Source: Deltaproteobacteria bacterium | GTDB lineage: Bacteria > Desulfobacterota > B13-G15 > RBG-16-54-18 | Length of the DNA stretch: 64,000 nt | Direction of reading: 5' to 3' | Assembly: GCA_019308925.1 (NCBI GenBank) | Contig: JAFDHG010000003.1 | Span: 3,367 to 67,366, forward strand | In this document: one piece after another, positions 12,960 through 52,485 of the stretch | Layout: each line of letters begins with the position of its first letter | Numbering within the stretch: position 1 is the stretch's first letter | Notes under the pieces: generated by a model | The model's database searches: none | Seen by the model: the letters and a program-made list of their open reading frames with translations, nothing else | What the model was told of the DNA's origin: nothing | Translations under genes and position numbers: made by a program

Positions 12960-15900
12960 TTAGACTCCCTGTTGAGATAGATAATCACCCAGAAACCTGG
13001 CGGTATATGATTTGTCCTTCTGCTCTATGATCTCCCATGGGTTGCCCTGGACGACAATGTGGCCTCCACCTGCTCCGCCTTCAGGACCAAGGTCGATGAT
13101 ATAATCGGCCTCCTTAATCACCTCCAGGTTGTGTTCGATGACTACTACCGTGTTTCCCCTGTCTATTAGATTTTGCAGTACCTTCAGCAGTTTTTCAATA
13201 TCCGCTATGTGGAGGCCGGTGGTCGGTTCATCCAAGACGTAGAGGGTCTTTCCCCTGGAGGGCTTGCAGAGCTCGGCGACCAGTTTTACCCTCTGTGCCT
13301 CCCCCCCAGAGAGGGTGGGGCTCGGTTGCCCAAAGGTGAGGTAGCCGAGCCCCATATCCACGATCATCTGCAGGATCCGCTTCACCTTGGGTATGGCGGA
13401 GAAGAACTTCAGGCCCTCCTCAAAGGTCATCTCCAAGACCTGGTGGATGTTTTTGCCCTTGTAGATAACAGAGAGGGTTTCATCATTGTAGCGGCGCCCA
13501 GAGCACCCGTTGCAGTACACATATACATCAGGCAGAAACTGCATCTTGACCTTGATCTTGCCCTGGCCTGCACACTCCTCGCACCTCCCCCCTTTTACGT
13601 TGAAGGAGAACCTCCCCGCTCCATACCCCCTTCCCCTCGCCTCGGGGGTCAGGGAGAAGATGCGTCTTATTTCATCGAAGAGCCCCACGTAGGTGGCAGG
13701 GGTGGAGCGAGGTGTCCTCCCGATAGGGGAGTGGTCCACCTCCAAGACCCTCTCCAGATGCTTCCATCCCCTGATCTCGTTGTGGGCCCCCACCTTTCCC
13801 TTGGCGTCGCTCAAGAGGTTTCTCAGCCCACAGAAGATGGTCTCCTTCAGGAGGGTAGATTTCCCCGATCCTGAGACCCCGGTGATACAGGTGAAGCTGC
13901 CCAATGGGATACAGACATCGATCTCCTTCAGATTGTGTTCCCTGGCTCCCAGGACCCAGAGCCATCGCCCCTCCTTGGGTGGGCGCAGGCGGGAGGTGAT
14001 CTTTCTTCGACGACGGCCGTTCAGGTAGGCACCGGTGATCGAGGCGGGGCAGCTTTGGATCTCCTCCAGGGTGCCGGCAGCTACCACCCTCCCTCCATGT
14101 ACCCCCCCTCCAGGCCCTAAATCTATGATGTAGTCCCCCCTTCTAATGGTCTCCTCATCGTGCTCCACCACCATGATGGTATTGCCTCGGTCCCTCATCT
14201 CCCCGAGGGTGGCCAGCAGCATCTGGTTGTCCCGGGGGTGCAGCCCAATGGTGGGCTCATCCAGGATATAGCAGACCCCTCTCAGGTTGGAGCCGAGCTG
14301 GGCAGCCAGGCGGATCCTTTGGGCCTCTCCCCCTGAGAGGGTGTCCCCTCGGCGCTCCAGGGTGAGGTAAGAGAGCCCAACCCTGTTGAGGAACTGGAGC
14401 TTGGTCATGACCTCTCTGATGATCCCCTCGGTAATGGGTATCTCGGCCTCATCAAAGTGGAGCTCCCCAAAGACCCTCTCGGCATCCTGCGCTGACAGGG
14501 AGACAAGATCCCATATTCCCCACCCCTTCACCTTTACCGCTAGGGCGTTCTCCTTCAGGCGTTGCCCCTTACAGAGGGGGCATTCTCTCTCCCCCATATA
14601 GGGGAGCAGGTAATCAAGGAGCCCATTCCCCTCGGCGTATCGGAGCAGCTCCCTCAGGATAGGGATCACCCCCTGGAATCCATCGCCACCATGGAGGATC
14701 TTTCTTTTTATCTCCTCCCTCAACTCCACCAGGGGCCTGTCCAGGGGGATGCCGAGCCTTTTATGGATCTCCCTGAGGACCTTCCCTTTCTGTCTTCGCA
14801 GCGGCCCCTCCTCAAAAGGGGTCAAAGCACCCCCTTCAAGAGACCTCTTCGGCTCAGGCAACACCAGGTCATCGACGAAGTCGCTCAGGCTTCCCAGCCC
14901 CTGACAATAGGGGCAGGCCCCGTAGCGACTGTTGAAGGAGAAGAGCCGTGGATCGAGCTCCTCAAACCCTATGCGGCACCGAGGACAGTAGAGCCGCTGG
15001 CTGAAGATCCTCTCTTCCCCGTCATGGGCCAGGAGATAGATGGTTCCCCTGCTCAACTGCAGGCCCCTGTGCACCACCTCCATGAGCCCGGAGCGGCCCC
15101 CCCGGCTGATCTCCCGCTGATCCACCACTACCTCTATGTCATGCTCTTGGTAGCGGCTCAAAAGTGGTAAGGGGTCAAGATCCACCATCACCCCGTCGAT
15201 TCTTGCTTTGGTGTAGCCAGCCCGCCTCGCCCCCTCCAAGGCCTCCTTGTGAAACCCTTTGCGCCCCATCACCAAGGGGGCTAGGATGGCCACCTCCCTT
15301 CCCCCGTAGTCCTTTATGATCTCCTGTGTGATCCCCTCCAGAGGGTGCGAGGAGATCTCCCCGCCACAGTGGGGGCAATATTGCACCCCTACTTTGCTGT
15401 ACAGCAGCCTCAGATAGTGGTAGATCTCCGTCATGGTGGCCACGGTGGAGCGACTCCCCCCTTGACTGATCCTCTGCTCGATGGCCACGGTGGGGGGGAT
15501 GCCGGTGATGAGGTCCACGTGGGGTCGGTCCATGATCTTGAGGTACTGCCTGATGTACGAGGAGAGGCATTCCAGATAGCGCCTTTGTCCCTCGGCGAAG
15601 ACGACATCGAACGCCAGGGTCGATTTTCCCGAGCCGCTCATGCCGGTGATGATCACCAGCTGGTCCCTGGGGATGGCCAGTTTGAGGTCACGCAGGTTGT
15701 GCTCCCTGGCCCCGGTGATGCAGATGGCCCCTCTATCAGTCCCTTTTTCCTCCTTCAGTTCCAGGGGCGTTGGGAGAACTTTTACCTCCTCCCCCTTCAG
15801 ATATCTATGCAGGAAACGCCCGGTATGGGAGCTCTCACATTCCGCCACCTCCTCGGGGGTGCTGGCGATCACTACGTACCCTCCCTCTTCGCCGCCCTCG

Positions 15901-18530
15901 GGCCCGAGGTCGATGAGGTAATCTGCGCACTTGATCACGTCCATATTGTGCTCGATGACCACCAAGGTATTTCCTTCCTCCACCAGCCTGTCGAAGGCGG
16001 ACAGTAACTGGCGGATATCGTCAAAGTGCAGTCCTATGGTGGGTTCGTCGAAGATGAACAGAGTGTTCGCCCTTCCCCGTTTCATGTACTGGGCCAGCTT
16101 CAACCTCTGGGCCTCTCCCCCTGAGAGGGTATTTATCGGCTGCCCTAGCCTCATATACCCCAACCCCACCTCCACTAGGGGAGACAGGGAGGCGGTGATC
16201 CGGAGATGGTCGCAGAAGAACTCTATGGCCTCCTGGGCCGTCATCTCCAGGACATCGTTGATATTCTTTCCCTGGTAGGTAACCTCTAAGATCTCATCTT
16301 TGAACCTCTTGCCCCTGCAGACAGGGCAGGTGATGTAGACGTCAGAGAGGAACTGCATCTGGACCTTTTCGAACCCCTCACCCTGACACTCCTCACACCT
16401 GCCTCCAGGGACATTAAAGGAGAAGGTCCCCGGGGTATATCCCCTCGCCCTGGAGAGGGGAACTCGGGAGAACAGGTGACGGATGGGGTCGTAGGCCTTG
16501 AGGTAGCTGATGGGGTTGGCCCGCGGGGTCTTCCCGATGGGCCTCTGGTCTACCAGGACCACCTCGGAGACCAGATCAGCCCCAGTGATCTCCTTAAACC
16601 TTCCCGGCCTCTCTTCATGGGCGCCCTTGGCCCTCTTGAGCCCCTTGTAGAGGATATCCTCGGCCAGTGTGCTCTTACCTGAGCCGGAGACCCCGCTGAT
16701 ACAGGTCATCAGCCCCAGGGGAATCTCCAGGTCGATCCCCTTCAAGTTGTGCTCTTGGGCCCCGCGGACCCTGATCACCTCCCCTTCTTTGGGTCTGCGG
16801 CGCATTGTGGGAACAGGTATCCGCAGGTCACCCTTTAGATACCTACCCGTGAGGGACCCTGGCTCCTGCGTGATTCCGGCTATGGGGCCATGGTAGACCA
16901 AGGTTCCCCCCTTCTCTCCGGCCCCTGGCCCCAGGTCCACGATGTAATCGCATCCCTTGACGATCTCTGTGTCGTGTTCCACCACCACTACCGTGTTTCC
17001 CATCTCCCTGAGGGCCTGAAGGATCTGCACCAAGCGGTGGCTGTCCCGGGGGTGTAGTCCGATGCTTGGCTCATCCAGGATATATAAGGTGTTCACCAAG
17101 GAAGAGCCCAGGGCCTTGGTGAGGCTTACCCGTTCTACCTCCCCTCCTGAGAGGGTGCGGGACTGGCGCTCCAGAGTAAGGTAGGCTAGCCCCACCTCCA
17201 TCAGATACCACAGCCTCCCGGTGATCTCCCGCAGGAGGAGCCCGGTCACCTCATCACCGGGCAACGCACTGAGCTCATTGAAGAACTCCTGGGCCTCACC
17301 GATGCTCATGGCATAGACCTCGGCGATGTTTTTTCCCTTTATCCTCCAAAGGAGCGCTTCATTCTTGAAGCGCGTCCCAACGCAGCTGGGGCAGGTCACA
17401 TAACTGCGATAGCGGGACAGAAAGACACGAACATGGAGCTTATACCTCTTGGTCTCCAGCCAGCGGAAGAATCCCCTCACCCCGTAAAACTTCCCATCGC
17501 CGTCGATGATGGCCCTTTTGTCCTCCTCCTTGAGGTCCTTGAAAGGGATGTCAGTGGGGATCCCCCGACGCCGGCAGAAGGTCATCAGGTCCTCGAACTC
17601 CAGACGGGCGATCCCGGTCCACGGTTTGATGGCCCCTTGGCGCAAGGTCTTGTTCTTGTCAGGGACTACCAGGTCGAGATCGATGTCGATGACCCGACCA
17701 AACCCCCGGCAGGTCTTGCAGGCCCCGATGGGGGAGTTGAAGGAGAATAGATTGGGGATGGGGTCCCGATATGAGATATCGCAGTAGGGGCAGTGCAGCC
17801 GGGTACTGAAGCGCAGGGTTTCCCCTCCAAGGAGGTGGATCGCCATCTCTCCTTTCCCGAACGTGAGGGCCTGCTCAAGGGAGTCGATGCACCGCTTCCT
17901 TTCCTCGGGCCGGAAGACCAGACGGTCGACTACCACCTGGATCTCCTCCCCCGTTTCTACACCCCCCTCCAGGGGTGTCACCTCCCCATCTCTGAGGATC
18001 CGGAAGAACCCCAGACCTGCGAGGCGGCTTGCAGCCTGCTCTGGTGAGATTCCCTGCAGGCGGAAGGGAAAGGTGATGACCATCTTTGTGGCGGAGGGGA
18101 GCTGAGAGAGCTCGGCGAAGATGGTTTGAGGGGTATCCCGCTGCACCTTACGGCCACACCCCCGGCATGAGAGCTCGGCAATGCGGGCAAACAGCAACTT
18201 GGTATAATCGGTGATCTCAGTCATGGTCCCCACGGTGGAGCGGGAGGTCTTGACCGGGTCCCCCTGCTCGATGGCTATGGCCGGGGGGATCCCCTCTATC
18301 CTCTCCACGTGGGGCCTGTCCATGCGGTCCATGAACTGGCGGGCATAGGGGGAGAAGGTTTCCACATAGCGGCGCTGGCCCTCTGCATATAAGGTGTCGA
18401 AGGCGAGGCTTGACTTCCCTGAGCCGCTCACCCCCGTGACGACGGTGATCTTCTGCAAAGGGATCTCGAGATCGAACCCCTTCAGGTTGTTCTGCCTGGC
18501 CCCGATGACCTTTATGGCCTTCTCACCCAT
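12960..18530 (-). CDS. uvrA: Tandem-fused double UvrA (two full excinuclease ABC subunit A units in one 1856-aa polypeptide)
   Basis: Four Walker A sites (GVSGSGKSS, GVSGSGKST, GMSGSGKST, GVSGSGKST) and four LSGGE signatures; each half has Walker A to signature spacing of about 425 aa and Cys-rich zinc modules as in UvrA; single uninterrupted ORF. Confidence 0.85.
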   Translation of the reverse strand: MGEKAIKVIGARQNNLKGFDLEIPLQKITVVTGVSGSGKSSLAFDTLYAEGQRRYVETFSPYARQFMDRMDRPHVERIEGIPPAIAIEQGDPVKTSRSTVGTMTEITDYTKLLFARIAELSCRGCGRKVQRDTPQTIFAELSQLPSATKMVITFPFRLQGISPEQAASRLAGLGFFRILRDGEVTPLEGGVETGEEIQVVVDRLVFRPEERKRCIDSLEQALTFGKGEMAIHLLGGETLRFSTRLHCPYCDISYRDPIPNLFSFNSPIGACKTCRGFGRVIDIDLDLVVPDKNKTLRQGAIKPWTGIARLEFEDLMTFCRRRGIPTDIPFKDLKEEDKRAIIDGDGKFYGVRGFFRWLETKRYKLHVRVFLSRYRSYVTCPSCVGTRFKNEALLWRIKGKNIAEVYAMSIGEAQEFFNELSALPGDEVTGLLLREITGRLWYLMEVGLAYLTLERQSRTLSGGEVERVSLTKALGSSLVNTLYILDEPSIGLHPRDSHRLVQILQALREMGNTVVVVEHDTEIVKGCDYIVDLGPGAGEKGGTLVYHGPIAGITQEPGSLTGRYLKGDLRIPVPTMRRRPKEGEVIRVRGAQEHNLKGIDLEIPLGLMTCISGVSGSGKSTLAEDILYKGLKRAKGAHEERPGRFKEITGADLVSEVVLVDQRPIGKTPRANPISYLKAYDPIRHLFSRVPLSRARGYTPGTFSFNVPGGRCEECQGEGFEKVQMQFLSDVYITCPVCRGKRFKDEILEVTYQGKNINDVLEMTAQEAIEFFCDHLRITASLSPLVEVGLGYMRLGQPINTLSGGEAQRLKLAQYMKRGRANTLFIFDEPTIGLHFDDIRQLLSAFDRLVEEGNTLVVIEHNMDVIKCADYLIDLGPEGGEEGGYVVIASTPEEVAECESSHTGRFLHRYLKGEEVKVLPTPLELKEEKGTDRGAICITGAREHNLRDLKLAIPRDQLVIITGMSGSGKSTLAFDVVFAEGQRRYLECLSSYIRQYLKIMDRPHVDLITGIPPTVAIEQRISQGGSRSTVATMTEIYHYLRLLYSKVGVQYCPHCGGEISSHPLEGITQEIIKDYGGREVAILAPLVMGRKGFHKEALEGARRAGYTKARIDGVMVDLDPLPLLSRYQEHDIEVVVDQREISRGGRSGLMEVVHRGLQLSRGTIYLLAHDGEERIFSQRLYCPRCRIGFEELDPRLFSFNSRYGACPYCQGLGSLSDFVDDLVLPEPKRSLEGGALTPFEEGPLRRQKGKVLREIHKRLGIPLDRPLVELREEIKRKILHGGDGFQGVIPILRELLRYAEGNGLLDYLLPYMGERECPLCKGQRLKENALAVKVKGWGIWDLVSLSAQDAERVFGELHFDEAEIPITEGIIREVMTKLQFLNRVGLSYLTLERRGDTLSGGEAQRIRLAAQLGSNLRGVCYILDEPTIGLHPRDNQMLLATLGEMRDRGNTIMVVEHDEETIRRGDYIIDLGPGGGVHGGRVVAAGTLEEIQSCPASITGAYLNGRRRRKITSRLRPPKEGRWLWVLGAREHNLKEIDVCIPLGSFTCITGVSGSGKSTLLKETIFCGLRNLLSDAKGKVGAHNEIRGWKHLERVLEVDHSPIGRTPRSTPATYVGLFDEIRRIFSLTPEARGRGYGAGRFSFNVKGGRCEECAGQGKIKVKMQFLPDVYVYCNGCSGRRYNDETLSVIYKGKNIHQVLEMTFEEGLKFFSAIPKVKRILQMIVDMGLGYLTFGQPSPTLSGGEAQRVKLVAELCKPSRGKTLYVLDEPTTGLHIADIEKLLKVLQNLIDRGNTVVVIEHNLEVIKEADYIIDLGPEGGAGGGHIVVQGNPWEIIEQKDKSYTARFLGDYLSQQGV

Positions 18531-20272: not shown

Positions 20273-20322
20273 AGTTAATGTGTTTAAGCCCTTGAAACGC
20301 TGAGTATCCAGGAGGTGCGGTC

Positions 20323-20519
20323 GTGGCGGAGAAGGTTATCATATTCGGGAAGGCGGGTTGACCCTATACTGCGCAGGCTAGGTCAGCCTACGGCGACGCT
20401 GCAGAGTACCATGGTGTCTACGCAGCCCCCCAAAACTCCAGGAGATGCTGAAGTATTCCAATGGCGCTCGGCAAGTGCCCGTCATTGTTGAAGGTGACAA
20501 CGTAATGATCGGTTATGGA
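20323..20519 (+). CDS. Candidate selenocysteine-containing glutaredoxin-like protein (YruB/Grx-like; needs UGA recoding and a frame change at a C6 run)
   Basis: RBS AGGAGG, 6 nt, GTG; MAEKVIIFGKAG-[TGA]-PYTAQARSAY; SECIS-like hairpin aggct-AGGUC-agcct at 20375-20389; C-terminal KLQEMLKYSNGARQVPVIVEGDNVMIGYGG lies in the +1 frame. Confidence 0.4.
20375..20389 (+). promoter_or_regulatory. SECIS-like hairpin downstream of the in-frame UGA
   Basis: 5-bp stem aggct/agcct with apical loop AGGUC, starting 13 nt after the UGA at 20359-20361. Confidence 0.35.
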
Positions 20520-20609
20520 GGCACCTGAGGAGTTTAATCACCGGTAGTTTGCCGGTAATGTTCCATCTGTGGAGTTCCTGCAGGATAAGTCTCGCTAGGT
20601 GTCTTTGAT

Positions 20610-21158
20610 ATGCCTTCAAGATCAAAACTCCTGATCCTAACCCTCCTGATGGAGGGTATGGTGTTGATAGTGGCCTTGCTTTTAGCGAGGCTCTTGGGAA
20701 TTGCTTTGTTTCCTTTAACTAAGAATCTTTTATATGATATCCTGTTGGGGACCTGTGGAGCTGTATTCCCTTTGGCTCTATTTGTTTTTTCCATTTCGAA
20801 AAAGGCAGAAGCTATTCCCCTATTAAGGTCAGTCAGAAAGACAGTAATGACAGAGATAAGGGCCGTATTTTCTATGACCAGATTGATAGATTTATGCTTC
20901 ATTTCTCTCTTTGCAGGTTTTGCTGAGGAATTTTTATTTCGGGGAGTGATTCAAATCAAATTGGGTATTGTCGCAGCAAGTATCATTTTTGGGCTTCTTC
21001 ATTGTGTGACCCCTGCCTATGTTGTTCTTGCTACAATTATAGGATTCTATATCGGCATCTTATACTATTTGAGTCAGAGCCTTCTTATACCTATTCAATT
21101 GCATTTTATCTATGATTTTGGAGCGCTGATCTATTTAAGATATTTTGTGAACGAGTGA
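20610..21158 (+). CDS. CPBP-family (CAAX) intramembrane metalloprotease
   Basis: 182-aa polytopic protein; motifs FAGFAEEFLFRG and LLHCVTP. Confidence 0.7.
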   Translation: MPSRSKLLILTLLMEGMVLIVALLLARLLGIALFPLTKNLLYDILLGTCGAVFPLALFVFSISKKAEAIPLLRSVRKTVMTEIRAVFSMTRLIDLCFISLFAGFAEEFLFRGVIQIKLGIVAASIIFGLLHCVTPAYVVLATIIGFYIGILYYLSQSLLIPIQLHFIYDFGALIYLRYFVNE

Positions 21159-21194
21159 CATGGAACAAATCTCCTGACTGGACTGTCTAACTGG

Positions 21195-21800
21195 ATGAAG
21201 GGAAAAAAGCAGACAAGAGATGAAGATTATGGGCTTGTATCTTTATGTAAAAAAGGTGATATAGATGTCTTTGAAGTATTGGTAAGAAGGCACCAGAAAA
21301 GGATGCTCAATATCGCCTACAGGATAATCGGGGACTATGCAGAGGCATGCGAGATCGTGCAGGAGGCATTTGTCTCTGCATATAGAGGCATCAAGAGTTT
21401 TAAAGGAAAGGCCAAGCTCTCTACATGGCTTTATACTATAGTCATTAATCTTTCAAAAAACCGTCTGAAACAGTTGAAGACCCAACTTTATCGCGAAAAA
21501 TTTTCGATAGATGATCCTGTTCCTACAACTGATGGCGAGATACAAATAGAACCCGCATCGAGTGAGCCCTCTGCCCTTGAAAGGCTCGAAAAACGAGATA
21601 TCCAGCAAAAGGTGCAGGGATGCATAAACGCCCTCGATACCGAATTCAGAGAGGCACTCATTCTGAGAGATATACAGGGTTTCTCCTATGAGGAAATAAG
21701 CGACATGCTTGAGGTACCAGAAGGTACTGTTAAATCAAGGCTTTTCAGGGCAAGGGAGGCTGTAAAGGACTGTTTAAAGAAATGGGTTGGAGATTTGTAG
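21195..21800 (+). CDS. ECF (sigma-24 family) RNA polymerase sigma factor
   Basis: 201 aa; region 2 (AQEAFVSAYRG) and region 4 HTH (EEISDMLEVPEGTVKSRLFRAR). Confidence 0.85.
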   Translation: MKGKKQTRDEDYGLVSLCKKGDIDVFEVLVRRHQKRMLNIAYRIIGDYAEACEIVQEAFVSAYRGIKSFKGKAKLSTWLYTIVINLSKNRLKQLKTQLYREKFSIDDPVPTTDGEIQIEPASSEPSALERLEKRDIQQKVQGCINALDTEFREALILRDIQGFSYEEISDMLEVPEGTVKSRLFRAREAVKDCLKKWVGDL

Positions 21801-22721
21801 ATGGAATGCAGCGAGGTTCAAAAAAGGCTATCAGCCTATATAGAAGGCACTATTTCTCCAGAAGAAAAGGTGCTCATTGATGAGCATCTCACCTCATGTC
21901 AGAGATGCAATGATGCTCTTTCTGACCTGGAGAAGACCATTGAGTATATCCAGGAGCTCGAAGAAATAGAGCCTCCTGCATGGCTCGCGCAGAAGGTTAT
22001 GGCGAGGGTCCAATCAGAAGCTGAATCGAAGAGAGGAATCCTGCGAAGGTTATTTTACCCGATCCCGATAAAGCTGCCCATTGAGGCGGTTGCCGTTGTC
22101 TTAATTGCAGTAGCCACGATATATGTCTTTAAGACCATGCAGCCAGAGATGAAACTTGTACAGGCACCCTCAGAGGAGGTGGCATCTCAAATTCTTTCAC
22201 AAGAAAAAGAAAAAACACTTGCTATTGAGGAGGGCAAACCTGTTCCTGCCAAGCCAGCAGAGCGATTCATGCTTGCAGAAGAAGAGACCCAAGCAAGAAA
22301 ATATGCAGGAGCACCCAAGGCCCCTGCGAAAGTTGCAAAAGGAGGCAAGGTTGAGCCACCAGCAGGCGCTGTTGCAAGGGATGAATTAAAACGAGAAGTT
22401 GTATCAAAAGAATCCAGAGCAAGGACATTGGCTGAGAGAAGAGAGGAGGGTATTGGTTTAGCTGTTAATGTCCGAGACATTGAGACTGCCAGTAAAGAGA
22501 TTGAGGAAGTTCTTATGCAGCTTGGAGGGAAGATAATCCGAACAGAATCTCTTGAGAATAAAATTGTCATCGCCGCAGAGCTTGACTCTCAAAAGGTGAA
22601 TGAATTACTTGAAAAACTAAAGGCGATTGGGGAGGTTAAAGAAAAGGGGATGGCATTAGAGGTTTGGGAAGGTGAAGTAGAGATAAGGATAGAGCTTGTA
22701 AAAACGCCAATACATCCTTGA
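21801..22721 (+). CDS. Anti-sigma factor (zf-HC2 type) with transmembrane segment and C-terminal domain
   Basis: Start codon overlaps the sigma gene stop; HLTSCQRCNDAL zinc-finger motif; a hydrophobic helix around aa 95-115. Confidence 0.65.
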   Translation: MECSEVQKRLSAYIEGTISPEEKVLIDEHLTSCQRCNDALSDLEKTIEYIQELEEIEPPAWLAQKVMARVQSEAESKRGILRRLFYPIPIKLPIEAVAVVLIAVATIYVFKTMQPEMKLVQAPSEEVASQILSQEKEKTLAIEEGKPVPAKPAERFMLAEEETQARKYAGAPKAPAKVAKGGKVEPPAGAVARDELKREVVSKESRARTLAERREEGIGLAVNVRDIETASKEIEEVLMQLGGKIIRTESLENKIVIAAELDSQKVNELLEKLKAIGEVKEKGMALEVWEGEVEIRIELVKTPIHP

Positions 22722-30702: not shown

Positions 30703-32961
30703 TTAATATCTTTTGTTTGACGATCCCAACTTCCTCCTGGATGCCTCCAGCACCCTCTCCAGGCTGGCCGGCAGGTGATAGATCCTCTCCCCCAGGGCAT
30801 GGGCGATGGCGTTCAGGATGGCCGGGGCGGTGGGGATAAGGGCCGGCTCCCCCACCCCCTTGGCCCCAAAAGGACCGGTGGGTTCTGGATCCTCCACAAT
30901 GATGGGGATGACCTCTGGTATGTCTTTTATCGAAGGGATCAAATAGTCCCGCATGGAACGGGTCTGCCCAGGGACGAACTCCTCCATCAGGGCGAAACCG
31001 ATCCCCATGGCCACACCGCTGGCAATCTGCCCTACCACATTGGAAGGGTTTACGGCCTTCCCCACATCGTGGGCTGCCACCACCCGCAAAACATCCACCT
31101 CGCCAGTAGCAGGGTCCACCTCTACCTCTGCCATCTGGCAGGCGAATGCATAGGTGGCATACGGGATGCCTTGGCCAGTCTCGGCGTCCAGGGTAGTGGT
31201 GGGTGGGTCGAAGAAACCCTCACCCATTAATTTCTTTCCCTCCTGATAGGACCTGGCTGCCACATCCTTCAGGGTGGCAAATATTTCCCCGTCTCTTTGG
31301 GATTTGACCAGCCCGTCCTCCACAGTGAGCTCGTGCGCAGGGACTTTCAGAAATCGGGAGGCCTCCTCCAGGACCAACCCTTTTAACTTGTCTGTCGCCT
31401 CGTACACCGCATTGCCGGAGATATAGGTCTGGCGGCTGGCCGAGGTGGCCCCGGCATCAAGGGTAAGGGCTGTATCCCCCCTAACGAGCCTGATATCCTG
31501 TGTATCTATCCCCATTTCGGAGGCGGCGATCTGGCTGAGCACTGTATCGGAACCCTGGCCGATCTCCGCTGCCCCTGTAAAAAGGGTGAACCTCCCCTGA
31601 TGATCGAGTTCGGCCCGGGCCGAGGCGGGGTTCTTCAACCCTGTATTGCCGATCCCATACCACATGGCCCCGATTCCCTTTCCATAGAGCCTTCCCGGGT
31701 TGGACTTTATCTCCCCCCTATGCTCTTTTACCTGCTGCAGGCACTCCTTGATCCCCACGCTCTCCTTTAGTGTCTGGCCGGTAGCAGTCTCCGAGCCCCG
31801 GTCGAAGGCGTTTAAGAGACGGATCTCAAAGGGGTCCATCCCCAGCTCCTCAGCCAGGATATCCATCTGGGATTCATGGGCGAAGGCCACCTGGGGAACG
31901 CCGAAGCCGCGCATGGCCCCACTGAAGGGATGATTGGTGTAGGCCATTTTACTCTTCACCCTTACATGGGGCACCTGATAAGGACCGGTGGCGTGCACCG
32001 CCGCCCTGCTGGCCACCGCTACCCCATAGGAGGCATAGGCCCCTGTATCCCCCAGGATATCGGCCTCCACGGCCACAAGCCTTCCATCCCGGCGGGCGCC
32101 GGTCTTGTATCTCATGATCAGGGGGTGACGCTTGGCCGTGGCCAGATAGGCCTCCTCTCTTGTGTAGACCAACCGAACCGGACGCCGCAGATGATAGATG
32201 GCCAAGGCGAGGAAACACTGAACGCTGATATCAAGTTTGCTCCCGAACCCCCCTCCAGTGGTCGCCTGGATCACCCTTGCCTGCGATGGTTCTACCCCCA
32301 GGACGGCCACGATCTCCATGTGGTCATAGTGGGGGTTCTGGGTTGATGGGTAGACAGTGATCCTCCCCTCTTCGTCCACCCAGGCCACCCCAGCATCAGG
32401 TTCCAGATAGGTGTGCTCCAGCATAGAGGTTAGATAGGTCCTCTCTATCACCAAGTCGGACTCGGCGAACCCCTGCTCTACATTACCCTTGATGGTGTCA
32501 CGCTGATAGAGGAGGTTCCCTTTTTCGTGGATCAGAGTGGGGGAGCGCAGGGCCTCTTCAGGGTCGAAGATGGGAGGGAGATCTTCATATTCCACTCTAA
32601 TCTCCTCCAAGGTCTGTTCGGCCTCCCTTTCAGTGTGGGCTACTACGAGGGCGATCGGATCTCCTATGAATCTGACTCTGTCTTCGGCCAGCACGTGTTG
32701 ATCCTTGGTTATGGCTATAATTCCGATTTGATTTTTCCCAGGAATGTCTCTATGGGTAAAGATCCTCACCACACCAGGCATCGCTTCAGCCTTCTCGGTG
32801 TGAATCTTTTTTATGCGTGCATGAGGACGATCGCTGCGCAGGACCTTCATGTGAAGGAGTCCCTCCATCTTGAGGTCGGCGGCGAAGAGGGCCTTGCCCA
32901 AGACCTTCTCCATGGTATCCACCCTTGGTATGCTCTCTCCTACCTTGCCCTTAAGCATCAT
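30703..32961 (-). CDS. Molybdenum hydroxylase (xanthine dehydrogenase family) molybdopterin-binding large subunit
   Basis: 752 aa; aldehyde oxidase/xanthine dehydrogenase a/b hammerhead and molybdopterin-binding domains. Confidence 0.85.
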   Translation of the reverse strand: MMLKGKVGESIPRVDTMEKVLGKALFAADLKMEGLLHMKVLRSDRPHARIKKIHTEKAEAMPGVVRIFTHRDIPGKNQIGIIAITKDQHVLAEDRVRFIGDPIALVVAHTEREAEQTLEEIRVEYEDLPPIFDPEEALRSPTLIHEKGNLLYQRDTIKGNVEQGFAESDLVIERTYLTSMLEHTYLEPDAGVAWVDEEGRITVYPSTQNPHYDHMEIVAVLGVEPSQARVIQATTGGGFGSKLDISVQCFLALAIYHLRRPVRLVYTREEAYLATAKRHPLIMRYKTGARRDGRLVAVEADILGDTGAYASYGVAVASRAAVHATGPYQVPHVRVKSKMAYTNHPFSGAMRGFGVPQVAFAHESQMDILAEELGMDPFEIRLLNAFDRGSETATGQTLKESVGIKECLQQVKEHRGEIKSNPGRLYGKGIGAMWYGIGNTGLKNPASARAELDHQGRFTLFTGAAEIGQGSDTVLSQIAASEMGIDTQDIRLVRGDTALTLDAGATSASRQTYISGNAVYEATDKLKGLVLEEASRFLKVPAHELTVEDGLVKSQRDGEIFATLKDVAARSYQEGKKLMGEGFFDPPTTTLDAETGQGIPYATYAFACQMAEVEVDPATGEVDVLRVVAAHDVGKAVNPSNVVGQIASGVAMGIGFALMEEFVPGQTRSMRDYLIPSIKDIPEVIPIIVEDPEPTGPFGAKGVGEPALIPTAPAILNAIAHALGERIYHLPASLERVLEASRRKLGSSNKRY

Positions 32962-33838
32962 GACTTAGATTGAAGACATCCAATAAGGCCTTTTTTACCA
33001 GCCCCTGGACGGCAGGCCTTTTATATTCCGTTGAGGGCCTCACCCCGCTCCTTTTCACCATCTCCTGGGCCACCCTCTGGGCCGCCTCCTCGATCAGGGC
33101 GACGGAGGGTACCTCCTCCCTAAACAAGGCTTCCACCTCCCCCATCCTGCATGGTGTGGGGGTGCAGGAGCCTACTGAGACCCTTACCTCCTTTGCCCTC
33201 CTGCCCTCCACCTTGGCCAGCGCCGCAATATTTATCCTGGCGATGGCCAGGGCCTTTCTCCTGGCCAGCTTGACAAAAGAATGCCTCCATCCATCATCCA
33301 ATTTGGCAAAACTGATCTCCGTCAGGATTTCTTGTGGCTCAATGACCGTTCTATAAGGACCGAGATAGAGATCAGTTATCGGAAGGGTCCTCTCTCCTCC
33401 CTTTCGTTGTAGAGTCACCTTGGCCCCCAGGACCACTAGGGCAGGGATGGTATCGGCGGCAGGGGAGGCATTGACGATATTCCCTCCGATGGTCCCCATG
33501 TTTCTGATCTGGGGAGAGCCCACGTTTTGGGCGGCCCTTCCCAGGATATCTCCCCCCTCCTTGATCAACCCGGAGGAGGCGAGCTCAGCATGGTTGATGA
33601 GGGGACCTAGACAGATCTGATCCCCCTCCTCCCTGACAAACCTCAGCTCAGGGATGCGAGTGATATCCACCAGGAAATCTGCCCCCAGCTTTCCCTCCCT
33701 GATCTCTGTCATCAGGTCGGTCCCTCCGGCGATCACCCGGGCCCTTTCTCCGTTATCCTTTAGTATCTCTAAGGCCTCCCCCAGAGAGCTTGGACAGATG
33801 TATGCGAACTCAGACCTCACCCTTTTTACCGCTCCCAC
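32951..33838 (-). CDS. Molybdenum hydroxylase FAD-binding medium subunit (CoxM/XdhA-like)
   Basis: 295 aa; FAD_binding_5-type motif GGTDL. Confidence 0.8.
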   Translation of the reverse strand: MGAVKRVRSEFAYICPSSLGEALEILKDNGERARVIAGGTDLMTEIREGKLGADFLVDITRIPELRFVREEGDQICLGPLINHAELASSGLIKEGGDILGRAAQNVGSPQIRNMGTIGGNIVNASPAADTIPALVVLGAKVTLQRKGGERTLPITDLYLGPYRTVIEPQEILTEISFAKLDDGWRHSFVKLARRKALAIARINIAALAKVEGRRAKEVRVSVGSCTPTPCRMGEVEALFREEVPSVALIEEAAQRVAQEMVKRSGVRPSTEYKRPAVQGLVKKALLDVFNLSHDA

Positions 33839-34316
33839 TGGCCTTGATGGCCTTCACGACCTGCAAGTAACCGGTACAACGACAGAGGTTGCCGGAGATG
33901 GCCTCCTCGATCTCCTCCTTGGATGGTTGGGGGTTTTCATCAAGGAGGGCCTTGGCCGCCATGATCATCCCGGGGGTGCAGAAGCCGCACTGAACGGCCC
34001 CATGGTTGAGAAAGGCCTCCTGCAATGGGTGCAGTTTCCCCTCCTGTCCGATCCCCTCAATGGTGATGATCTCCCTTCCATCTATTTTGGGGGCCAAGAC
34101 GAGGCAGGCATATACCGGTCTTCCATTCAGCAGGACCGTACACGCCCCACATTCCCCTATCCCGCACCCCTCCTTGGTCCCTGTGAGGCCGAGTTCGTCC
34201 CTGAGGAGTTCCAACAGGGTGAGGTTAGAAGGGATCTCCAGTTCTTTATCTTGGCCGTTTATTTTTAACCTTACCCTTACCTTCTGGACAGGCATCATCC
34301 CCTCACAAGGAAGCAA
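33810..34316 (-). CDS. Molybdenum hydroxylase [2Fe-2S] small subunit (CoxS-like)
   Basis: [11 protein letters not shown] and CGFCTPG cluster motifs; true start probably an internal Met (MMPVQKV). Confidence 0.85.
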
Positions 34317-45116: not shown

Positions 45117-45290
45117 AGGGTTCAAGGGGCCACGGGTTCTAGGGTTCAAGTGTTTATGCATTCATGGGGTTAATCACTCGACCCCTTGAATCCTGCCGCC
45201 AGCGGCATCCCGCTTCCTTAAATCTATATTGTGGGGCGGGATTGAATCCTTGACCCCTCAGTCCCGCCCTTGGCGGGGCAGTTTACTTTT
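45117..45290. repeat. Copy C of the dispersed palindromic repeat family, with an embedded terminator-like hairpin
   Basis: aagggttcaaggggccacgggttctagggttcaag ... cactcgaccccttgaatcc ... ggattgaatccttgacccct; hairpin cccgcc-cttg-gcgggg followed by cagtttacttttt. Confidence 0.55.
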
Positions 45291-47202
45291 TCCCATCCCC
45301 CCTCAGCACCCTCTCATCGCCTACCCTAATGGTGACCTTGATGGCATCGAAGTACTCTGCCAAGGGTATGGTGTACTTCCTGGAGACACTGGTGAGGGAT
45401 TTGAACTCCTGCGTGGATATCTTCCCCCTTTCTTTGACAAAGGAGATCAACCTTCCTCTGAGCTCATTCAAGGGGTCTTGATGGAAGTATATCCCCTCCT
45501 TTAACTTGACCAGCTTGCCCTGAGTGGTAAGCAGTAAAAGGATCTCCTTTACCTCTTTTTCGCTGGCACCGAGTTGTTCGCCCAACTCCCTCACCGAAGG
45601 AGGGGTGAGGTCACTGCGGTGCATGATCTCCTCGATCTTTTCTTCCAACTCCCGCTGCCTCCCCTGGAGGGCGATTTGATGTCCGGACAGCCTCAATTTG
45701 TCCTTCTCCTGAACCAAGACCTTTCTTTCCATAAGGTTTGACAAAAGGGCATTAAAGAGCTTCCCGTCCACCTCCGGGGGGAGTTTTGACTTAAGTTCCT
45801 CCTTGGGGATACCGGGTTTGAGGGGATTTTCAGCGTGGTACTTCTCCAGGGCCATCACCATCTCATCCTTAAGGTTGCTATATAGTTCTCCATCGATGAT
45901 CCGCTCGGCCTCCCTGTCGAATTTGATCGTCTTTTGTCGGGAGAGGAGTTCGGCCAGGGTTGCGGACAAGGTAGTTGGGGGAATGTTGGCGTAGCCGGAG
46001 AGCTTCCTCAGTTCTATCCCCCTATAGCCCCCCTTTTTGGTGTGAAAGCTGAGCACAAAGGAAGGGTCTCCCCTCTTAAGTTGTTCCAGTTGGGTGGTGA
46101 CCTCACCCTTAAACCTCTTGTGCCTCTGGGGATGGGCGTCTAAGACCACGCCACCACCGATAGTCTGGATCAGGGAGGAGCCGCGCAGCACGAAACGATC
46201 ATTGGGCAAGACCACCAAAGGCCCTCCCAGTCTTATCTGGGCGTATCCCCTTTGCCCGGGTTTCAGTTCATTGGTGCCCAACAAGAGGATCTTGGCCATC
46301 TGGTGGGATGTCCCTGTGTGGAAGCGGAGCATTACGCCATTTTTTAAGGGACGAGGGGAGTGGGACAGGTGGATGATCTCCACGTCGAGAAGGTCCGCCG
46401 GCTCCACTGTGCCCGGGTGAAGGAGCGCCTCACCCCTTTGTACCGAGGACTTTTCGACCCCCTGCAGGTTGACGGCGGTCCTTTGCCCCGCCACTGCCTG
46501 TTTGACTTTTTCGTTGTGGACCTGGAGCCCCCTGACCTTTGCCTTGAGCCCTCTGGGGAGGAACTCAACGGCTTCCCCGGTTGTAACCTTGCCCGACACG
46601 AGGGTCCCGGTAACCACCGTACCGAACCCCTTTATGGTAAAGACCCTGTCGATGGGAAGCCGGAAGATGCCATCAGAGGGTCTCTCCACGACCTGCTCAA
46701 CCAATTTCTCCAGGGCCATGATGAGTTCTTCTATCCCTTCTCCGGTGACCGCCGAGACAGGGATGATGGGGGCCCCTTCGAGGAAGGTCCCCTTGGTGAA
46801 TGCCTTTATGTCCTCCATGGCCAACTCTCTTAGCTCTTGGTCCACCAGGTCGATCTTGGTCAAAACCGTCAATCCCTTCTCGACCCCCAACAGGGTGCAG
46901 ATATCCAGATGTTCCCTGGTCTGAGGCATGACCCCCTCGTCGGCCGCGATGATCAGGGCCACGATGTCTATCCCCCCAGCCCCGGCAACCATGTGTTTGA
47001 CAAATCTCTCGTGCCCCGGCACATCCACGATTCCGATCCGTTCTCCACTGGGCAGATCTAGGTAGGCAAACCCCAACTCTATGGTGATTCCGCGCTCCTT
47101 TTCCTCCTTCAGCCTGTCGGTGTCTATCCCGGTGAGGACCTTCACCAGGACCGTCTTCCCGTGGTCTATATGGCCAGCCGTCCCCAAGATGATCTGCTTC
47201 AT
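45283..47202 (-). CDS. selB: Selenocysteine-specific translation elongation factor SelB
   Basis: Start at [17 protein letters not shown]; EF-Tu-like G domain then winged-helix C-terminal extension; about 639 aa. Confidence 0.9.
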
Positions 47203-47278
47203 CCCATGTCCCCTTTTGCCAAAGTGTATGTCACCAGCCTCAGCTATGTCAAGCAAAGGGATATGTCTATGAGAGGTT

Positions 47279-49288
47279 TCAAAGGGTTTGTCTTTCACTA
47301 GAACCCTGGGTCCCTAGATCCCTGGAACCCTCAAAGTCCTTTTCTTTTTTGAGCACCACCCAGTCCGTACTGCCCCTCTCCATCTCCTGGCAGAATTTGC
47401 GGTAGAGGGGGTAGTCCTCCAGGGGGATGGTGGTGGTCTTCCTTATCCGTTCTCCTTGATAGAATATCTTACCCTCCTCGTACCGATAACTGGAGCAAAA
47501 GTCAAAATAGGGGGTCTTTATCTCCACCGGTTTAGGCAGGTAATAGACCCCATATCCATCTGGGAGGTCTACCTCCACTTCATTTCTGAGGAAGTGGACG
47601 GAGCAAAGCTCTATGGGGTATTTGCGTCCTTCCTTGACAGGGGTAAGGCAGCTATATGACACGCCAGGCAACTGAAATATCAGGAGATCTCCCGCCCTTT
47701 TACAGTAGTCTTCAGCGATAAATCGGTATGTCTTGGTGAAGGGCCTCTTAAAATCAAAGGGATCGGAGATGCTGCAATCGATCAGTTTTGCCCCGGGGTG
47801 AAGGGCGCTTGCAGCCCCCTCAAATATCTCTCTCAATTCGGTGGGACCACAATCCATGTAGGTCGCCCGGTTGTATGCCCCTACATCGCCAAAGTCCAGG
47901 GACCTTTTTTCGACCTCTATAGAGCCATCAGGACCGATTCTAATGGTTTGCCTGTAAAGGACTCCATTTTCCCGGGGCCTAGCCAGGGGGGTGCGGGTGA
48001 AGATCCCTTGCTGGCCCTTAAAGAGGAGGGCATCCCGATCTTGATCCTCACTTGGGAGATAGTCAAAGGGATAGGTCTCCCCGGTGGGGTCGAGGAACTG
48101 ATATTTCCTCTCCCCTTCGATGGCGACGATACAGTGATTGAACTGAAAGGGGTAGGGGAAGTCTTTGATCAATCTTCCCACCCCACGTGTGGGGATCAAC
48201 ACATAGTAGGCAGGGACTCCAGCCGCCTTAAGCATGCTTATCAGAAGGGTGCTTTTGTCCTTACAATCTCCATACTTGTTTTCGAACACCTCCCGGGCCG
48301 GGGTCGGTTCGTATCCAGACTTTCCTAGATTGATGGAGACATATCTGATCTCAGTCTCAACATAATAGAAGAGGGCCTCTGCCTTCTCACCAGGGTCTTT
48401 TAGGCCCCCTGTCAACTCGGCAACCTTTTCCCGTATGGCCTCATCGGGTTCAATCTTGTCATCCTTCAGTCTGTTCCACCAGGAGAAGAAGTCCTTCCAA
48501 GAGCGGACAGTGGTGCCCTGGATGTTAAAGGCGATCTCCGAAAAAGGAGGCATGTTATACTCGGGCATGATCTGGGGGATATTTCTGTATTCCCATAGAA
48601 AGACCTTCTTACCTCCCTCATGATAGGTCTTGGGGGATGTGGCAAACTCCTTTAAGGGGTTTCTGATGTAATACCTCAGATCCATATCCTCGGGGGCAAT
48701 GACCTTGAACCTGGAGAGAAAGGCCGGTTCGTAACCCTGGAAATAGAACCTGCTTGCATATTCTCCCTCCATTGTGGGGCGCCTTTTCTCTATTACTACC
48801 TTGTAATCAATAATGGAGCCAACCACTATCCCAGGAAGGGAAAAGGTCAATATTTTGTACTCACCGTATGAGGGGTAATTGCTGTAGGGGGTTGCCATTG
48901 TTACTACGTCATCCTTCATGGGAAGGATTTCTCCCTCTGGGGTAATGGTCCTGGCGTATTCGACAAAGATGTTCTCGCGGCGGGAATTGTAGCCGATCTC
49001 CACGTTGGCGTATCCCTTCCCCCCTTCCTTGATCACCTTGAAGACCGTGTGCAGGGTGGATCTACAGGTGCGCTGAGCGAGGACTTCGTCCACTTTTTCG
49101 TCCAGGACCACGATGACTGAGGCATCGGGATAGAACTCATCCGGAGGGAGGATCTCTAGGAGGTGGATTACCTCATCATCTATCATCCCTTTTAGTTTAG
49201 AGAAATCAAGGGCTGGTGAGGAAAGAGGGACGGAGATTAGAATTAAAGGGAGAAGAAAGAAAAGAAGTATTTTCCTTGTCTTTTTCAT
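47279..49288 (-). CDS. DUF3857-type N-terminal domain plus transglutaminase-like cysteine-protease-core protein, secreted
   Basis: Signal peptide; transglutaminase-core Cys motif GDCKDKSTLLISMLKAAGVPA; last 18 codons are read through a copy of the dispersed repeat. Confidence 0.65.
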   Translation of the reverse strand: MKKTRKILLFFLLPLILISVPLSSPALDFSKLKGMIDDEVIHLLEILPPDEFYPDASVIVVLDEKVDEVLAQRTCRSTLHTVFKVIKEGGKGYANVEIGYNSRRENIFVEYARTITPEGEILPMKDDVVTMATPYSNYPSYGEYKILTFSLPGIVVGSIIDYKVVIEKRRPTMEGEYASRFYFQGYEPAFLSRFKVIAPEDMDLRYYIRNPLKEFATSPKTYHEGGKKVFLWEYRNIPQIMPEYNMPPFSEIAFNIQGTTVRSWKDFFSWWNRLKDDKIEPDEAIREKVAELTGGLKDPGEKAEALFYYVETEIRYVSINLGKSGYEPTPAREVFENKYGDCKDKSTLLISMLKAAGVPAYYVLIPTRGVGRLIKDFPYPFQFNHCIVAIEGERKYQFLDPTGETYPFDYLPSEDQDRDALLFKGQQGIFTRTPLARPRENGVLYRQTIRIGPDGSIEVEKRSLDFGDVGAYNRATYMDCGPTELREIFEGAASALHPGAKLIDCSISDPFDFKRPFTKTYRFIAEDYCKRAGDLLIFQLPGVSYSCLTPVKEGRKYPIELCSVHFLRNEVEVDLPDGYGVYYLPKPVEIKTPYFDFCSSYRYEEGKIFYQGERIRKTTTIPLEDYPLYRKFCQEMERGSTDWVVLKKEKDFEGSRDLGTQGSSERQTL

Positions 49289-49993: not shown

Positions 49994-50597
49994 TGATGGC
50001 GCGCAGGAGCGCGGGATATATCCCGTGGCCAAGAGGCTCTGTGATATCACAGGGGCTGCCCTGGGGCTTGTGGGGTTTGGGCTCCTTTCCCCTTTTATTG
50101 CCCTGGCCATAAAACTCGATTCCCCAGGACCCATCTTCTATCGACAGACACGGGTAGGCAGGGGAGGCAAGACCTTTGTTATCAGGAAACTGCGCACCAT
50201 GGTAGCGGATGCTGAAAAAGAAGAAGACTTCTGGTCAAATCACACTGATCCCAGGGTGACCCGGGTAGGCCGCTGGTTGCGCAAAACAAGGCTTGACGAG
50301 GTCCCCCAGTACTGGAGGATCCTCAAGGGCGAGATGAGCATCGTGGGTCCCAGGCCAGAACGTCTCAATGTTGTAAAAAGGCTTGAGAAGGAGCTCCCCC
50401 TTTACCACCTGCGTTACATCGCAAAACCAGGGTTGGTAGGCTGGGCCATGGTTAATCGCGGTTATATGTGCAGCTTTGAGGATGCCAAGGTGAGGCACGA
50501 ATATGACCTATACTACGTAAAGCACCGGTCCTTCTGGTTTGATGCATTGATTTTTCTTAGGGCCTTTTGGCACTTGCTCACGATGAGGGGAAGGTGA
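49986..50597 (+). CDS. Bacterial sugar transferase catalytic domain (phosphoglycosyl transferase, PglC/WbaP C-terminal type)
   Basis: KRLCDITGAALGLVGFGLLSPFIALAIKLDSPGPIFYRQTRVGRGGKTFVIRKLRTM and DEVPQYWRILKGEMSIVGPRPE are the Bac_transf signature. Confidence 0.75.
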   Translation: MSDDGAQERGIYPVAKRLCDITGAALGLVGFGLLSPFIALAIKLDSPGPIFYRQTRVGRGGKTFVIRKLRTMVADAEKEEDFWSNHTDPRVTRVGRWLRKTRLDEVPQYWRILKGEMSIVGPRPERLNVVKRLEKELPLYHLRYIAKPGLVGWAMVNRGYMCSFEDAKVRHEYDLYYVKHRSFWFDALIFLRAFWHLLTMRGR

Positions 50598-51711
50598 TGA
50601 TCGCTGTTATTGGTGCTTCGAGTAGCGGGATTTTTGCTGCATGGCGCCTGGCACAGGAGGGTCATCCGGTACAGCTCTATGAAAAGGAGCCTGCCTTTCA
50701 GCCCTATGCCCGAAGGCTTATCGTGACCTCTTTGCTCTTTCAGTTCCTATCCCTCCCTGAGGATTTGATCCTCCATCAGATAGATGCCTTCGAGTTCATC
50801 GCTGATGGGTACCGAGGTCATATTCAGCTCAAAAGCCCTGATCTGATCCTAGAGCGCAGAGACCTCATCCAGTGGCTTGCAACAAAGGCGCAAAAAAGCG
50901 GGGTGGAATTAAGGGGGGATGGGTCTTTTCCGGCCTCAGCGAGGAAGTAAATGAGGTGAGGGTCAGGCTGCGCCACGCATCGACAGGACAACAGGAGGAG
51001 GTCTGCCCTTCTATCCTCATCAGTGCCGATGGGGCAGAGGGTTCAGTGGGGAAGACCCTGGGTCATCGACTGCCCACGGTCTCGCTGCTTCAGGCAAAGA
51101 TCACCCTTCCTCAAGATCATCCCCCAAACCTTGCCCGGATCTTGTTTAAGAGGGAGATAACGCCCTATTTCTTCTGGCTTTTCCCTGATTCCCCGCACAC
51201 CGGCATTGTAGGGGTCATCATGGATAATGGGGATGGGGTTAGGCAGGCCCTGGATGGGTTTATCCACCAGATGGAGTGTGAGCCGCTTGAGTACCAGGAG
51301 GGGTATACGTCCCTGTACATGCCCGATTTTAGACCGGAGCTAAAAAGGGGAGGACTACATATCTTCTTTGTGGGCGATGCTGCAGGGCAGGTGAAGGCCA
51401 CCACCGTGGGGGGGACGGTTGCAGGCCTTCGAGGGGCAGAGGCCTGTGTCAGGGTGATCAATAAAGGGACCTCTTATTGGCAGGAGCTTTCCCCTCTGAG
51501 AAGGGAACTCAGGGTCCATTCTTTAATTCGGAGGTTTTTGAACCCTCTGGATGATGGGGATTACGGGAAGGTCTTATCCTCTGTTGACGGGAAGGGGTCT
51601 TTTCCCGGCCGCTTTTCCCGCGATGAAATATCCTCTCATCTCATTCCTCTTCTCCTGAAACACCCTCGCTTTTCCTTCACGATATTAAAAGCTATGACAA
51701 AGGGCATGTAA
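50597..51711 (+). CDS. FAD-dependent oxidoreductase, geranylgeranyl-reductase family, split by a frameshift at a G6 run near 50906-50911
   Basis: N-terminal part MIAVIGASSSGIFAAWRLAQEGHPVQLYEK (FAD fold) ends at 50950; the continuation WVFSGLSEEVNEV...ILISADGAEGSVGK is in the -1 frame. Confidence 0.6.
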
Positions 51712-51839: not shown

Positions 51840-52306
51840 GTGGTTAAGGAGGAAGAAAAAAGGGGTGAGGTAAAGAAAGGGTATCGTTGGGCATGGCAGA
51901 TACATTATCACGTAGTGTTTCCGGTGAAGTATAGGAGGGCATTGTTGGAAGAGGATGTGGTGGAGATAATAAAAGAGACAGCACGGGGAATACAAGAGAG
52001 CAAGAGAGGTATGCAATAGAGTTTGAAGCCTTGGGGATGGATAGAGACCATATTCATATACTTTGCAGTGCACATCCAAAGCTAGCTCCTGGTGAGATAG
52101 TAAGGATATTCAAGGGCATAACAGCGAGGGAGATTTTCAGGAGGGAACCGACGATAAAGAAGGAATTATGGGGAGGAGAGTTTTGGACAGATGGATATTA
52201 TGTTGCGACTGTAGAGGAGAGGGCAGACTGGGGGACAGTGGAGAGATACATAAAAAGACAAGGCAAACCAAGAGAGGAATTGAGGCAACTGAAATTATTT
52301 GATTGA
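51840..52306 (+). mobile_element. tnpA: IS200/IS605-family Y1 transposase tnpA, interrupted by one frameshift
   Basis: Frame 0: KGYRWAWQIHYHVVFPVKYRRALLEEDVVEIIKETARGIQ (HUH region); stop at 52017; -1 frame continues ERYAIEFEALGMDRDHIHILCSAHPKLAPGEIVRIFKGITAREIF...WGGEFWTDGYYVATV (catalytic Tyr region). Confidence 0.65.
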
Positions 52307-52383
52307 TACCCTGCGGCTTGCCGCAGGGTTATTCATTAAATTATTTGATTGATACCCTGCGGCTTGCCGCAGGGTTATTCATT
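52296..52383. repeat. Two tandem 46-nt direct repeats, each carrying an IS200/IS605-type hairpin
   Basis: ttatttgattgataccctgcggcttgccgcagggttattcatt occurs twice (hairpins at 52309-52328 and 52355-52374). Confidence 0.6.
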
Positions 52384-52485
52384 GATCACTACCCTCAGCT
52401 TACCAGAGAGGATATACACGCCGCTCTGGCCTATGCGGCAGAGCTGTCCCACGAAAGTATCTGGAAAACCGCAGTGCCTGCATGA
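52375..52485 (+). pseudogene. C-terminal fragment of a DUF433-family protein, truncated by the repeat insertion
   Basis: DHYPQLTREDIHAALAYAAELSHE matches the conserved DUF433 C-terminus (YP.LT.EDI.AAL.YA); the N-terminal part is absent. Confidence 0.4.

Follow-up and report, generated by a model that had tools for sequence, protein, structure and literature searches.

A double-selenocysteine gene of UXX-star selenoprotein family 1, one base short at a C6 run in the assembled sequence

The window, by which we mean the whole 64,000-nt stretch of DNA that was analyzed, carries on its forward strand a short gene (20323-20537) whose reading frame contains two in-frame TGA codons and a one-base gap. 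A ribosome-binding site (AGGAGG, 20310-20315), which is kept in the closest relative found (L082), is located 7 nt 5' of a GTG start codon (20323-20325). Both elements had been proposed in an initial annotation of this DNA, and both can be read directly. The first part of the coding sequence (20323-20431, frame 1, codons 1-36) begins V/M-AEKVIIFGKAG, continues through the first TGA (20359-20361) into PYTAQARSAYGD and ends within a run of six C (20426-20431). Its product, MAEKVIIFGKAG-U-PYTAQARSAYGDAAEYHGVYAAP, aligns to homologues without gaps. The TGA encodes position 1 of a U-P-Y-T redox motif (codons TGA CCC TAT ACT, 20359-20370) preceded by a glycine (G-U-P-Y-T), which places the selenocysteine (Sec), residue 13 of the protein, at the start of helix 1, the place of CPYC in glutaredoxins. 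The second part (20433-20537) lies in frame +2 (= -1) relative to the first and encodes KLQEMLKYSNGARQVPVIVEGDNVMIGYGGT-U-GV-stop. The initial annotation had correctly seen that this glutaredoxin-like C-terminal half is out of frame with the N-terminal half; the C run and the one-base shift that it described are real, but the run spans 20426-20431 rather than 20425-20430.

The frame as given is not uninterrupted, being one base short at the C run with respect to every homologue. A seventh C at this site would give ...A-A-P-P-K-L-Q... and bring the two parts into a single frame encoding a 71-residue product, while the literal product of the unrepaired frame has 42 aa. As for the 3' end, the gene stops neither at 20519, where it had been taken to end, nor at the TGA at 20526-20528. 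This TGA is a second Sec codon, for the third residue from the C terminus (Sec69), and it is followed by GGA GTT and by a TAA stop codon, read directly at 20535-20537, which is the true end of the gene. The last four codons (TGA GGA GTT TAA, 20526-20537) produce a C-terminal T-U-G-V-stop tail, right behind a conserved GYGG. Since the second UGA had been taken for a stop, this C-terminal U-x-x-stop and a second SECIS hairpin beyond it had been missed. The appropriate annotation is a single selenoprotein CDS of 71 codons in which two UGAs are recoded, with a flag for a possible homopolymer error, instead of two small fragments or nothing.

We put at about 0.88 the probability that 20323-20537 (+) is an NF041114 gene encoding a 71-residue, minimal glutaredoxin-fold protein with two Sec residues, with the gap in the C6 run leaning toward an artifact by about 60:40. 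The product was scored against profiles after frame repair, with U written as C. Against NCBIfam NF041114 ("UXX-star selenoprotein family 1"), for which the curated equivalog cutoff is 72 bits, the 71-aa product scores 102.2 bits and covers profile positions 1-70 of 70. A 68-aa version ending at the second TGA scores 93.1 bits, and the full span of the profile is reached only when U-G-V is included; the unrepaired frame falls below the cutoff, with 36.6 bits. The suggestion that a one-base repair restores a full-length protein is borne out by these scores, but that the gene is intact in the organism is favored only modestly. The match to the Pfam Glutaredoxin profile (PF00462) is a marginal pass (23.5 bits versus a gathering threshold of 22.9, E = 6.5e-5), and the CxxC/CGFS active-site motif is missing, the U-P-Y-T motif having no second Cys or Sec inside it. 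Membership in the YruB family (TIGR02196), with which the gene had been compared, was rejected on a score of 16.5 bits versus a cutoff of 88.55.

UXX-star families 2 and 3 and the HUGP/GUXX-star fusion (NF041211, NF047338, and NF045501) have in common with our protein a small glutaredoxin-like scaffold and a C-terminal Sec-x-x-stop. However, the window product scores far under their cutoffs (41.3 versus 100, 38.4 versus 97, and 44.8 versus 325 bits, respectively), and in these families the N-terminal motif generally keeps its Cys or the protein is joined to a further domain. The distant loci L079-L081 resemble this second group, with an N-terminal CPYC or CPYV and a GG-x-U-x-x-stop end. With UXX-star family 1, on the other hand, the window copy agrees in all the features tested, that is, profile score, U-P-Y-T motif, GYGG-T-U-G-V-stop terminus, length of 71 aa, and both hairpins, and it differs only by the gap in the C run and a few private substitutions (Gly31, Asn60, and Met62).

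This family has been listed before, in review tables of the Zhang group. In a review from 2022, the entry "Distant Grx-like protein 1" has the motif UxxT (PMC9312934), and a 2026 review equates Distant Grx-like protein 1 with NF041114, listing a UxxT motif, two Sec, and WP_258313609.1 as an example (PMC13188914). The latter also includes the sister families, 2 and the HUGP/GUXX-star fusion, which it credits to Haft & Tolstoy 2025. The source given in both reviews for "Distant Grx-like protein 1" is the 2008 GOS paper, the main text of which contains neither this name nor a UxxT Grx-like entry. In the two published accounts (PMC9312934 and PMC13188914), there is no experimental Sec insertion or characterization for UXX-star family 1. 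The selenoprotein gene is real, and the family is already catalogued and curated, hence there is no new family here; among the members of this double-selenocysteine family, the window copy is nothing out of the ordinary. Whatever biological interest there is in double-Sec proteins with a C-terminal U-x-x-stop attaches to that family and not to the window locus. The initial annotation had instead proposed a selenoprotein family not described before, with one Sec and with a UxxT motif placed on a YruB-type scaffold. The U-P-Y-T motif and the glutaredoxin-like sequence on which it drew are real, but an existing equivalog cutoff is passed, the family and its UxxT motif already stand in two review tables, the YruB profile is missed by a wide margin, and a second, universally conserved Sec codon is present, all of which makes this proposal practically untenable. 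A genuine Sec codon and its SECIS could be recognized from raw sequence alone; it is the second Sec that was overlooked and the novelty that was overestimated.

Both Sec codons are supported by homologues. We assembled 80 genome loci and 26 metagenome loci (106 in total), which, when TGA is read as U, yield 83 distinct intact genes. The genome loci come from metagenome-assembled genomes (MAGs) labeled Nitrospirota/Thermodesulfovibrionia, Desulfobacterota, Methylomirabilota, Acidobacteriota, Fervidibacter, and others. At the first site, 78 of the 83 genes have TGA and 5 have Cys, the latter representing a Cys/Sec pair, with motif forms UPYT (50), UPFT (15), UPHT (12), and the Cys form (5). The placement of the TGA at the first-Cys position of a CPYC-type motif, as originally proposed, is upheld. 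At the second site, TGA is found in 83/83 genes; two sense codons, never more or fewer, separate it from a stop, which is TGA in 40 genes, TAA in 25, and TAG in 18. UGV is the commonest C terminus (52/83). An invariant TGA with a conserved dipeptide and then a variable stop behind it is the pattern predicted for a Sec codon, and a terminator would not look so. Homologues in the protein database (P0001-P0020), which stem from gene calls with TGA as Trp, show W at both sites (GKAGWPYT and GYGGTWGV). Within the window, ordinary stops are TGA more often than any other codon (16 of 37 long ORFs), which indicates that recoding is local. A genome-wide reassignment of TGA (code 4 or 25) was rejected on this ground and because Cys replaces Sec in five orthologues. 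Comparative sequence evidence therefore identifies the UGA at 20359-20361 as the predicted Sec codon of a glutaredoxin-fold selenoprotein gene. A variant form with U-P-F-C, in which the resolving Cys is kept, occurs in a Methanobacterium MAG (L043, 2491-2691) and a Syntrophaceae MAG (L054, 5709-5909); in both, an insertion of ~14 residues (GDVSLRGGVPIFGGT-U) precedes the C-terminal Sec, and there is no +3 stop.

Each UGA is followed by a hairpin. Hairpin 1 (20375-20389) lies within the CDS and consists of a 5-bp stem, AGGCU (20375-20379) pairing with AGCCU (20385-20389), closed by AGGUC. It starts 13 nt past the first UGA, where the initial annotation had placed a SECIS element. Folding of the window sequence alone, a check suggested at the time, gave no thermodynamic signal (z = +0.57 over 52 nt, z = -0.6 over 25 nt), and the hairpin is missing from the 52-nt minimum free energy structure. 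Since single-sequence folding past the first UGA is uninformative, we used covariation instead, and the support for hairpin 1 comes from homologue comparison and not from the window. In an ungapped alignment of 70 sequences starting at the first UGA, in which the stem corresponds to columns 17-21 and 27-31, 85% of the cells are paired, versus 16-56% in controls with the 3' partners shifted by 1-3 columns. Compensatory, double-sided changes occur at two of the five pairs. One of these two pairs links two synonymous third codon positions: columns 21 and 27 are C-G in 49 sequences, U-A in 17, U-G in 3, and another combination in 1. The hairpin encodes a conserved A-R-S-A-Y, so that its conservation is partly at the protein level.

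Hairpin 2 (20540-20556) is located in the 3' untranslated region, starts 11 nt past the second UGA and has the sequence ACCGGUA-GUU-UGCCGGU. In the window, it folds with -9.1 kcal/mol (z = -2.5). A hairpin is found downstream of the second UGA in every homologue, with a differing stem sequence, and the RNAalifold consensus of 37 homologues shows compensatory changes at all five predicted pairs (5/5). We rejected the possibility that it is a terminator, there being no T-run behind it. In both hairpins, the apical loop begins 18 nt past the UGA, with a G at its first or second base. Rfam returned no match in the UXX-star gene region. On the strength of these alignments, hairpin 1 is the predicted SECIS of the first UGA, and covariation supports both hairpins.

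We then have to account for the missing base. The closest relative found, L082 (metagenome contig Ga0180300_10013200), has an intact gene with 85% protein identity and no C run at this place, and the CPBP-protease and ECF-sigma genes downstream are common to L082 and the window. When the two DNA sequences are aligned, the coding region contains one 1-nt gap, where L082 has GAT CCC ACA and the window GCC CCC -CA. With respect to L082, pN/pS is 0.13 upstream of the gap and 0.18 downstream of it, in the shifted frame, with pS about 0.5 on both sides. Such similar values across the gap mean that the downstream half has been translated in its frame for essentially all of the divergence, and selection equally strong past the gap leaves it to be either an artifact or very recent. 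We consider an assembly or sequencing undercall to be somewhat the better explanation. In its favor, a geranylgeranyl-reductase-family gene (50567-51711, +) is also one base short, at a G6 run (50913-50918) that splits it into two ORFs. One of these ORFs matches positions 5-109 of TIGR02032 and the other positions 120-297, the sequence ...VELRG carries on as GWVFSGL in the next frame, and G7 would restore the frame. This gene is the one other homopolymer frameshift found, and the mention of several in the initial annotation was overstated. A codon-usage scan for frameshifts proved too noisy, antisense ORFs scoring well too, and was replaced by profile scans of suspicious ORF pairs, which revealed this one clear case and none among ten further ORFs. 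An IS200/IS605-type TnpA gene (HYHVVFPVKYRR ... DRDHIHIL; 51840-52306, +) is split into two ORFs as well, but by a perfect 8-nt tandem duplication, CAAGAGAG-CAAGAGAG (51993-52000 / 52001-52008), which points to a genuine inactivating mutation and not to a homopolymer error.

Alternatively, the gene belongs to the same family and the frameshift is real, in which case the window would hold a very recent pseudogene or a segregating frameshift allele that makes no functional protein. This deserves serious weight while falling short of an even chance. The sequence as given does have C6, and homopolymers are also natural hotspots of mutation. Moreover, the window has 140 homopolymer runs of at least 6 bases, and most of them fall within ORFs that are intact, a G8 in the alanine racemase gene and a C8 in selD among them, which indicates that the assembly is not generally error-prone. 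About 4 of 97 distinct homologues from MAGs and metagenomes are broken too, at other positions (L052, L076, L078, and L106), and the window copy has an unusual Gly at position 31, where nearly all close homologues have Asp. Against a real frameshift, no other lesion is seen, with the ribosome-binding site, the start, both TGAs, both hairpins, and the final stop all intact. Purifying selection is as strong past the gap as before it, so that any inactivation would have to be very recent, and the same one-base deficit in another conserved gene, at a G run, fits systematic undercalling. Looking for sequence from the same strain that would distinguish C6 from C7, we found no match, either by exact-product look-ups of three neighboring proteins or, in metagenome contigs, with an exact DNA pattern allowing C5-C7. 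It is also conceivable that expression itself makes up for the gap, whether the ribosome undergoes programmed -1 frameshifting or transcription slips on the C run, so that the C6 gene would still yield the whole protein. The sequence A-A-P-P-K-L is just what a -1 slip on CCC-CCC-A would produce, and no further support was found. However, a frameshift is needed in none of about 100 homologues, L082 reads GAT CCC ACA with no slippery run, and an X-XXY-YYZ heptamer is lacking in the zero frame, while known cases of transcriptional slippage involve longer runs of A or T. We regard compensation as very improbable and retain the undercall as the favored explanation of the gap.

As had been noted initially, SelB is encoded in the window, as is a SelD that contains Sec. 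The Sec-specific elongation factor, SelB (45283-47298, -), scores 399.9 bits against TIGR00475 (cutoff 242) and likely starts near 47202. Directly upstream of it, on the same strand, lies a gene for a 669-aa DUF3857/transglutaminase-core protein (47279-49288, -). SelD, the selenophosphate synthetase (60525-61511, +), was identified by motifs only, GAGUASK, VDDAGVY, and TVDFFTP occurring in one frame. An in-frame UGA at 60576-60578 (GAG-U-ASK) identifies SelD as itself a predicted selenoprotein. In the ORF list, SelD appears only past this TGA (60624-61511). Within the window there is no tRNA-Sec, the sole tRNA being a tRNA-Val (53883-53957), and no SelA was seen. A cluster of the xanthine-dehydrogenase family of molybdenum hydroxylases (30703-34316, -) comprises a large subunit of 752 aa followed by ORFs of 295 and 168 aa. 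Matches of the large subunit include the selenium-dependent XDH profile TIGR03311 (547 bits, below the cutoff of 830), and the cluster may bear on uses of selenium other than Sec.

Around the UXX-star gene itself, few neighbors recur, and they say little about its function. A pair consisting of an ECF sigma-24 factor and a zf-HC2-type anti-sigma factor adjoins the gene in 15/108 loci, and a CPBP-family membrane protease is found immediately downstream of it in 7/108. These three are the only recurring neighbors, and all of them are present in the window (20610-22721, +). The loci with such neighbors include L013, L014, L082, L088, L089, and L095.

To understand what the protein might look like, we turned to an AlphaFold model of homologue P0001, computed with a 14-sequence alignment (pLDDT 82.7). 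The model displays a beta-alpha-beta-alpha-beta-beta order (b1 5-9, a1 14-26, b2 27-31, a2 36-46, b3 54-57, and b4 60-63) followed by an unstructured tail, with no C-terminal helix. Its best matches in the PDB are NrdH-redoxin and glutaredoxins, with TM values of 0.6-0.7; one of the highest-ranking is cGrx1 (7c10, TM 0.62), in which the Sec of the Clostridium selenoprotein Grx1 is replaced by Cys. At the sequence level, glutaredoxins of known structure are matched only weakly (E about 2e-3). Sec13 occupies the N terminus of helix 1, the seat of the attacking Cys in CPYC; Thr stands where the resolving Cys would normally be, and Sec69 is located two residues past the conserved GG.

These features are shared to different extents with known proteins. 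Classical glutaredoxins and NrdH-redoxin (PF00462) have the same fold order, an active site at the N terminus of helix 1, V-P before strand 3, and GG after strand 4, but the window family has no CxxC and no C-terminal helix, contains two Sec, and scores marginally against the Pfam profile. The Grx1 of Clostridium oremlandii (UxxC; Kim et al. 2011, cited in PMC13188914) also has a glutaredoxin fold with Sec first in the active-site motif, as here. In contrast to the window protein, which has Thr at position 4 of the motif, a Sec in the tail, and, as far as the model predicts, no last helix, the Clostridium Grx1 combines a single Sec with a resolving Cys and a C-terminal helix, and its glutathione-linked activity has been demonstrated. 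Animal thioredoxin reductase, with its Gly-Cys-Sec-Gly tail, likewise bears a Sec in the penultimate region of a flexible C-terminal tail and has its SECIS in the 3' untranslated region, because the stop comes within a few codons. The protein, the domain of life, and the SECIS type are unrelated, and we draw an analogy only, with no claim of homology.

A working model can be proposed from these likenesses. SelB-GTP-Sec-tRNA would bind each hairpin in turn, leading to the recoding of both UGAs, and the protein would be a small redox carrier in which Sec13 makes the nucleophilic attack. With Thr in place of the usual resolving Cys, we propose Sec69 as the resolving residue: being on a flexible tail, it could resolve the intermediate through a Sec13-Sec69 diselenide. 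In monothiol glutaredoxins such as yeast Grx5, a Cys behind the GG motif can bond to the active-site Cys. The Sec13-Sec69 relay would be analogous to this GG-Cys and to the GCUG tail of thioredoxin reductase. By analogy, the family could be a minimal diselenide oxidoreductase in which the resolving residue has moved from CxxC to a C-terminal Sec, an idea that we hold tentatively and would not bet on at even odds. If true, the recurrent ECF sigma and zf-HC2 anti-sigma neighbors would hint at envelope-stress redox sensing. This hypothesis concerns the whole known family, including the window copy if it is intact, and nothing about it is special to the window.

The same gene and recoding could also serve another function, with the two selenols chelating a soft metal or metalloid (Hg, As, or Cu) and no diselenide cycling. 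Metal binding or unknown substrates have been suggested for UXX-star family 1 in the 2026 review (PMC13188914), and the gene neighborhood contains no thioredoxin or glutathione reductase partner. However, metal-resistance genes do not recur there either, the only repeated neighbors being the ECF sigma/anti-sigma pair and the CPBP protease, and the protein keeps the redox-enzyme features of glutaredoxins, namely an N-cap nucleophile, the cis-Pro of VP, and the GG motif. We consider chelation rather unlikely and keep the diselenide oxidoreductase as our tentative proposal.

Two further regions of the window are worth recording. An 1856-aa ORF (12960-18530, -) contains repeated UvrA-type ABC and zinc-finger motifs at ~2x the normal length of UvrA, and from its sequence looks like a tandem-fused double UvrA-like protein. 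On the forward strand, two small overlapping ORFs of 86 and 74 aa (52610-53084, +) resemble, by sequence only, a BrnT/BrnA-type toxin-antitoxin pair, and a DUF433-like ORF (52303-52485) lies just upstream of them.
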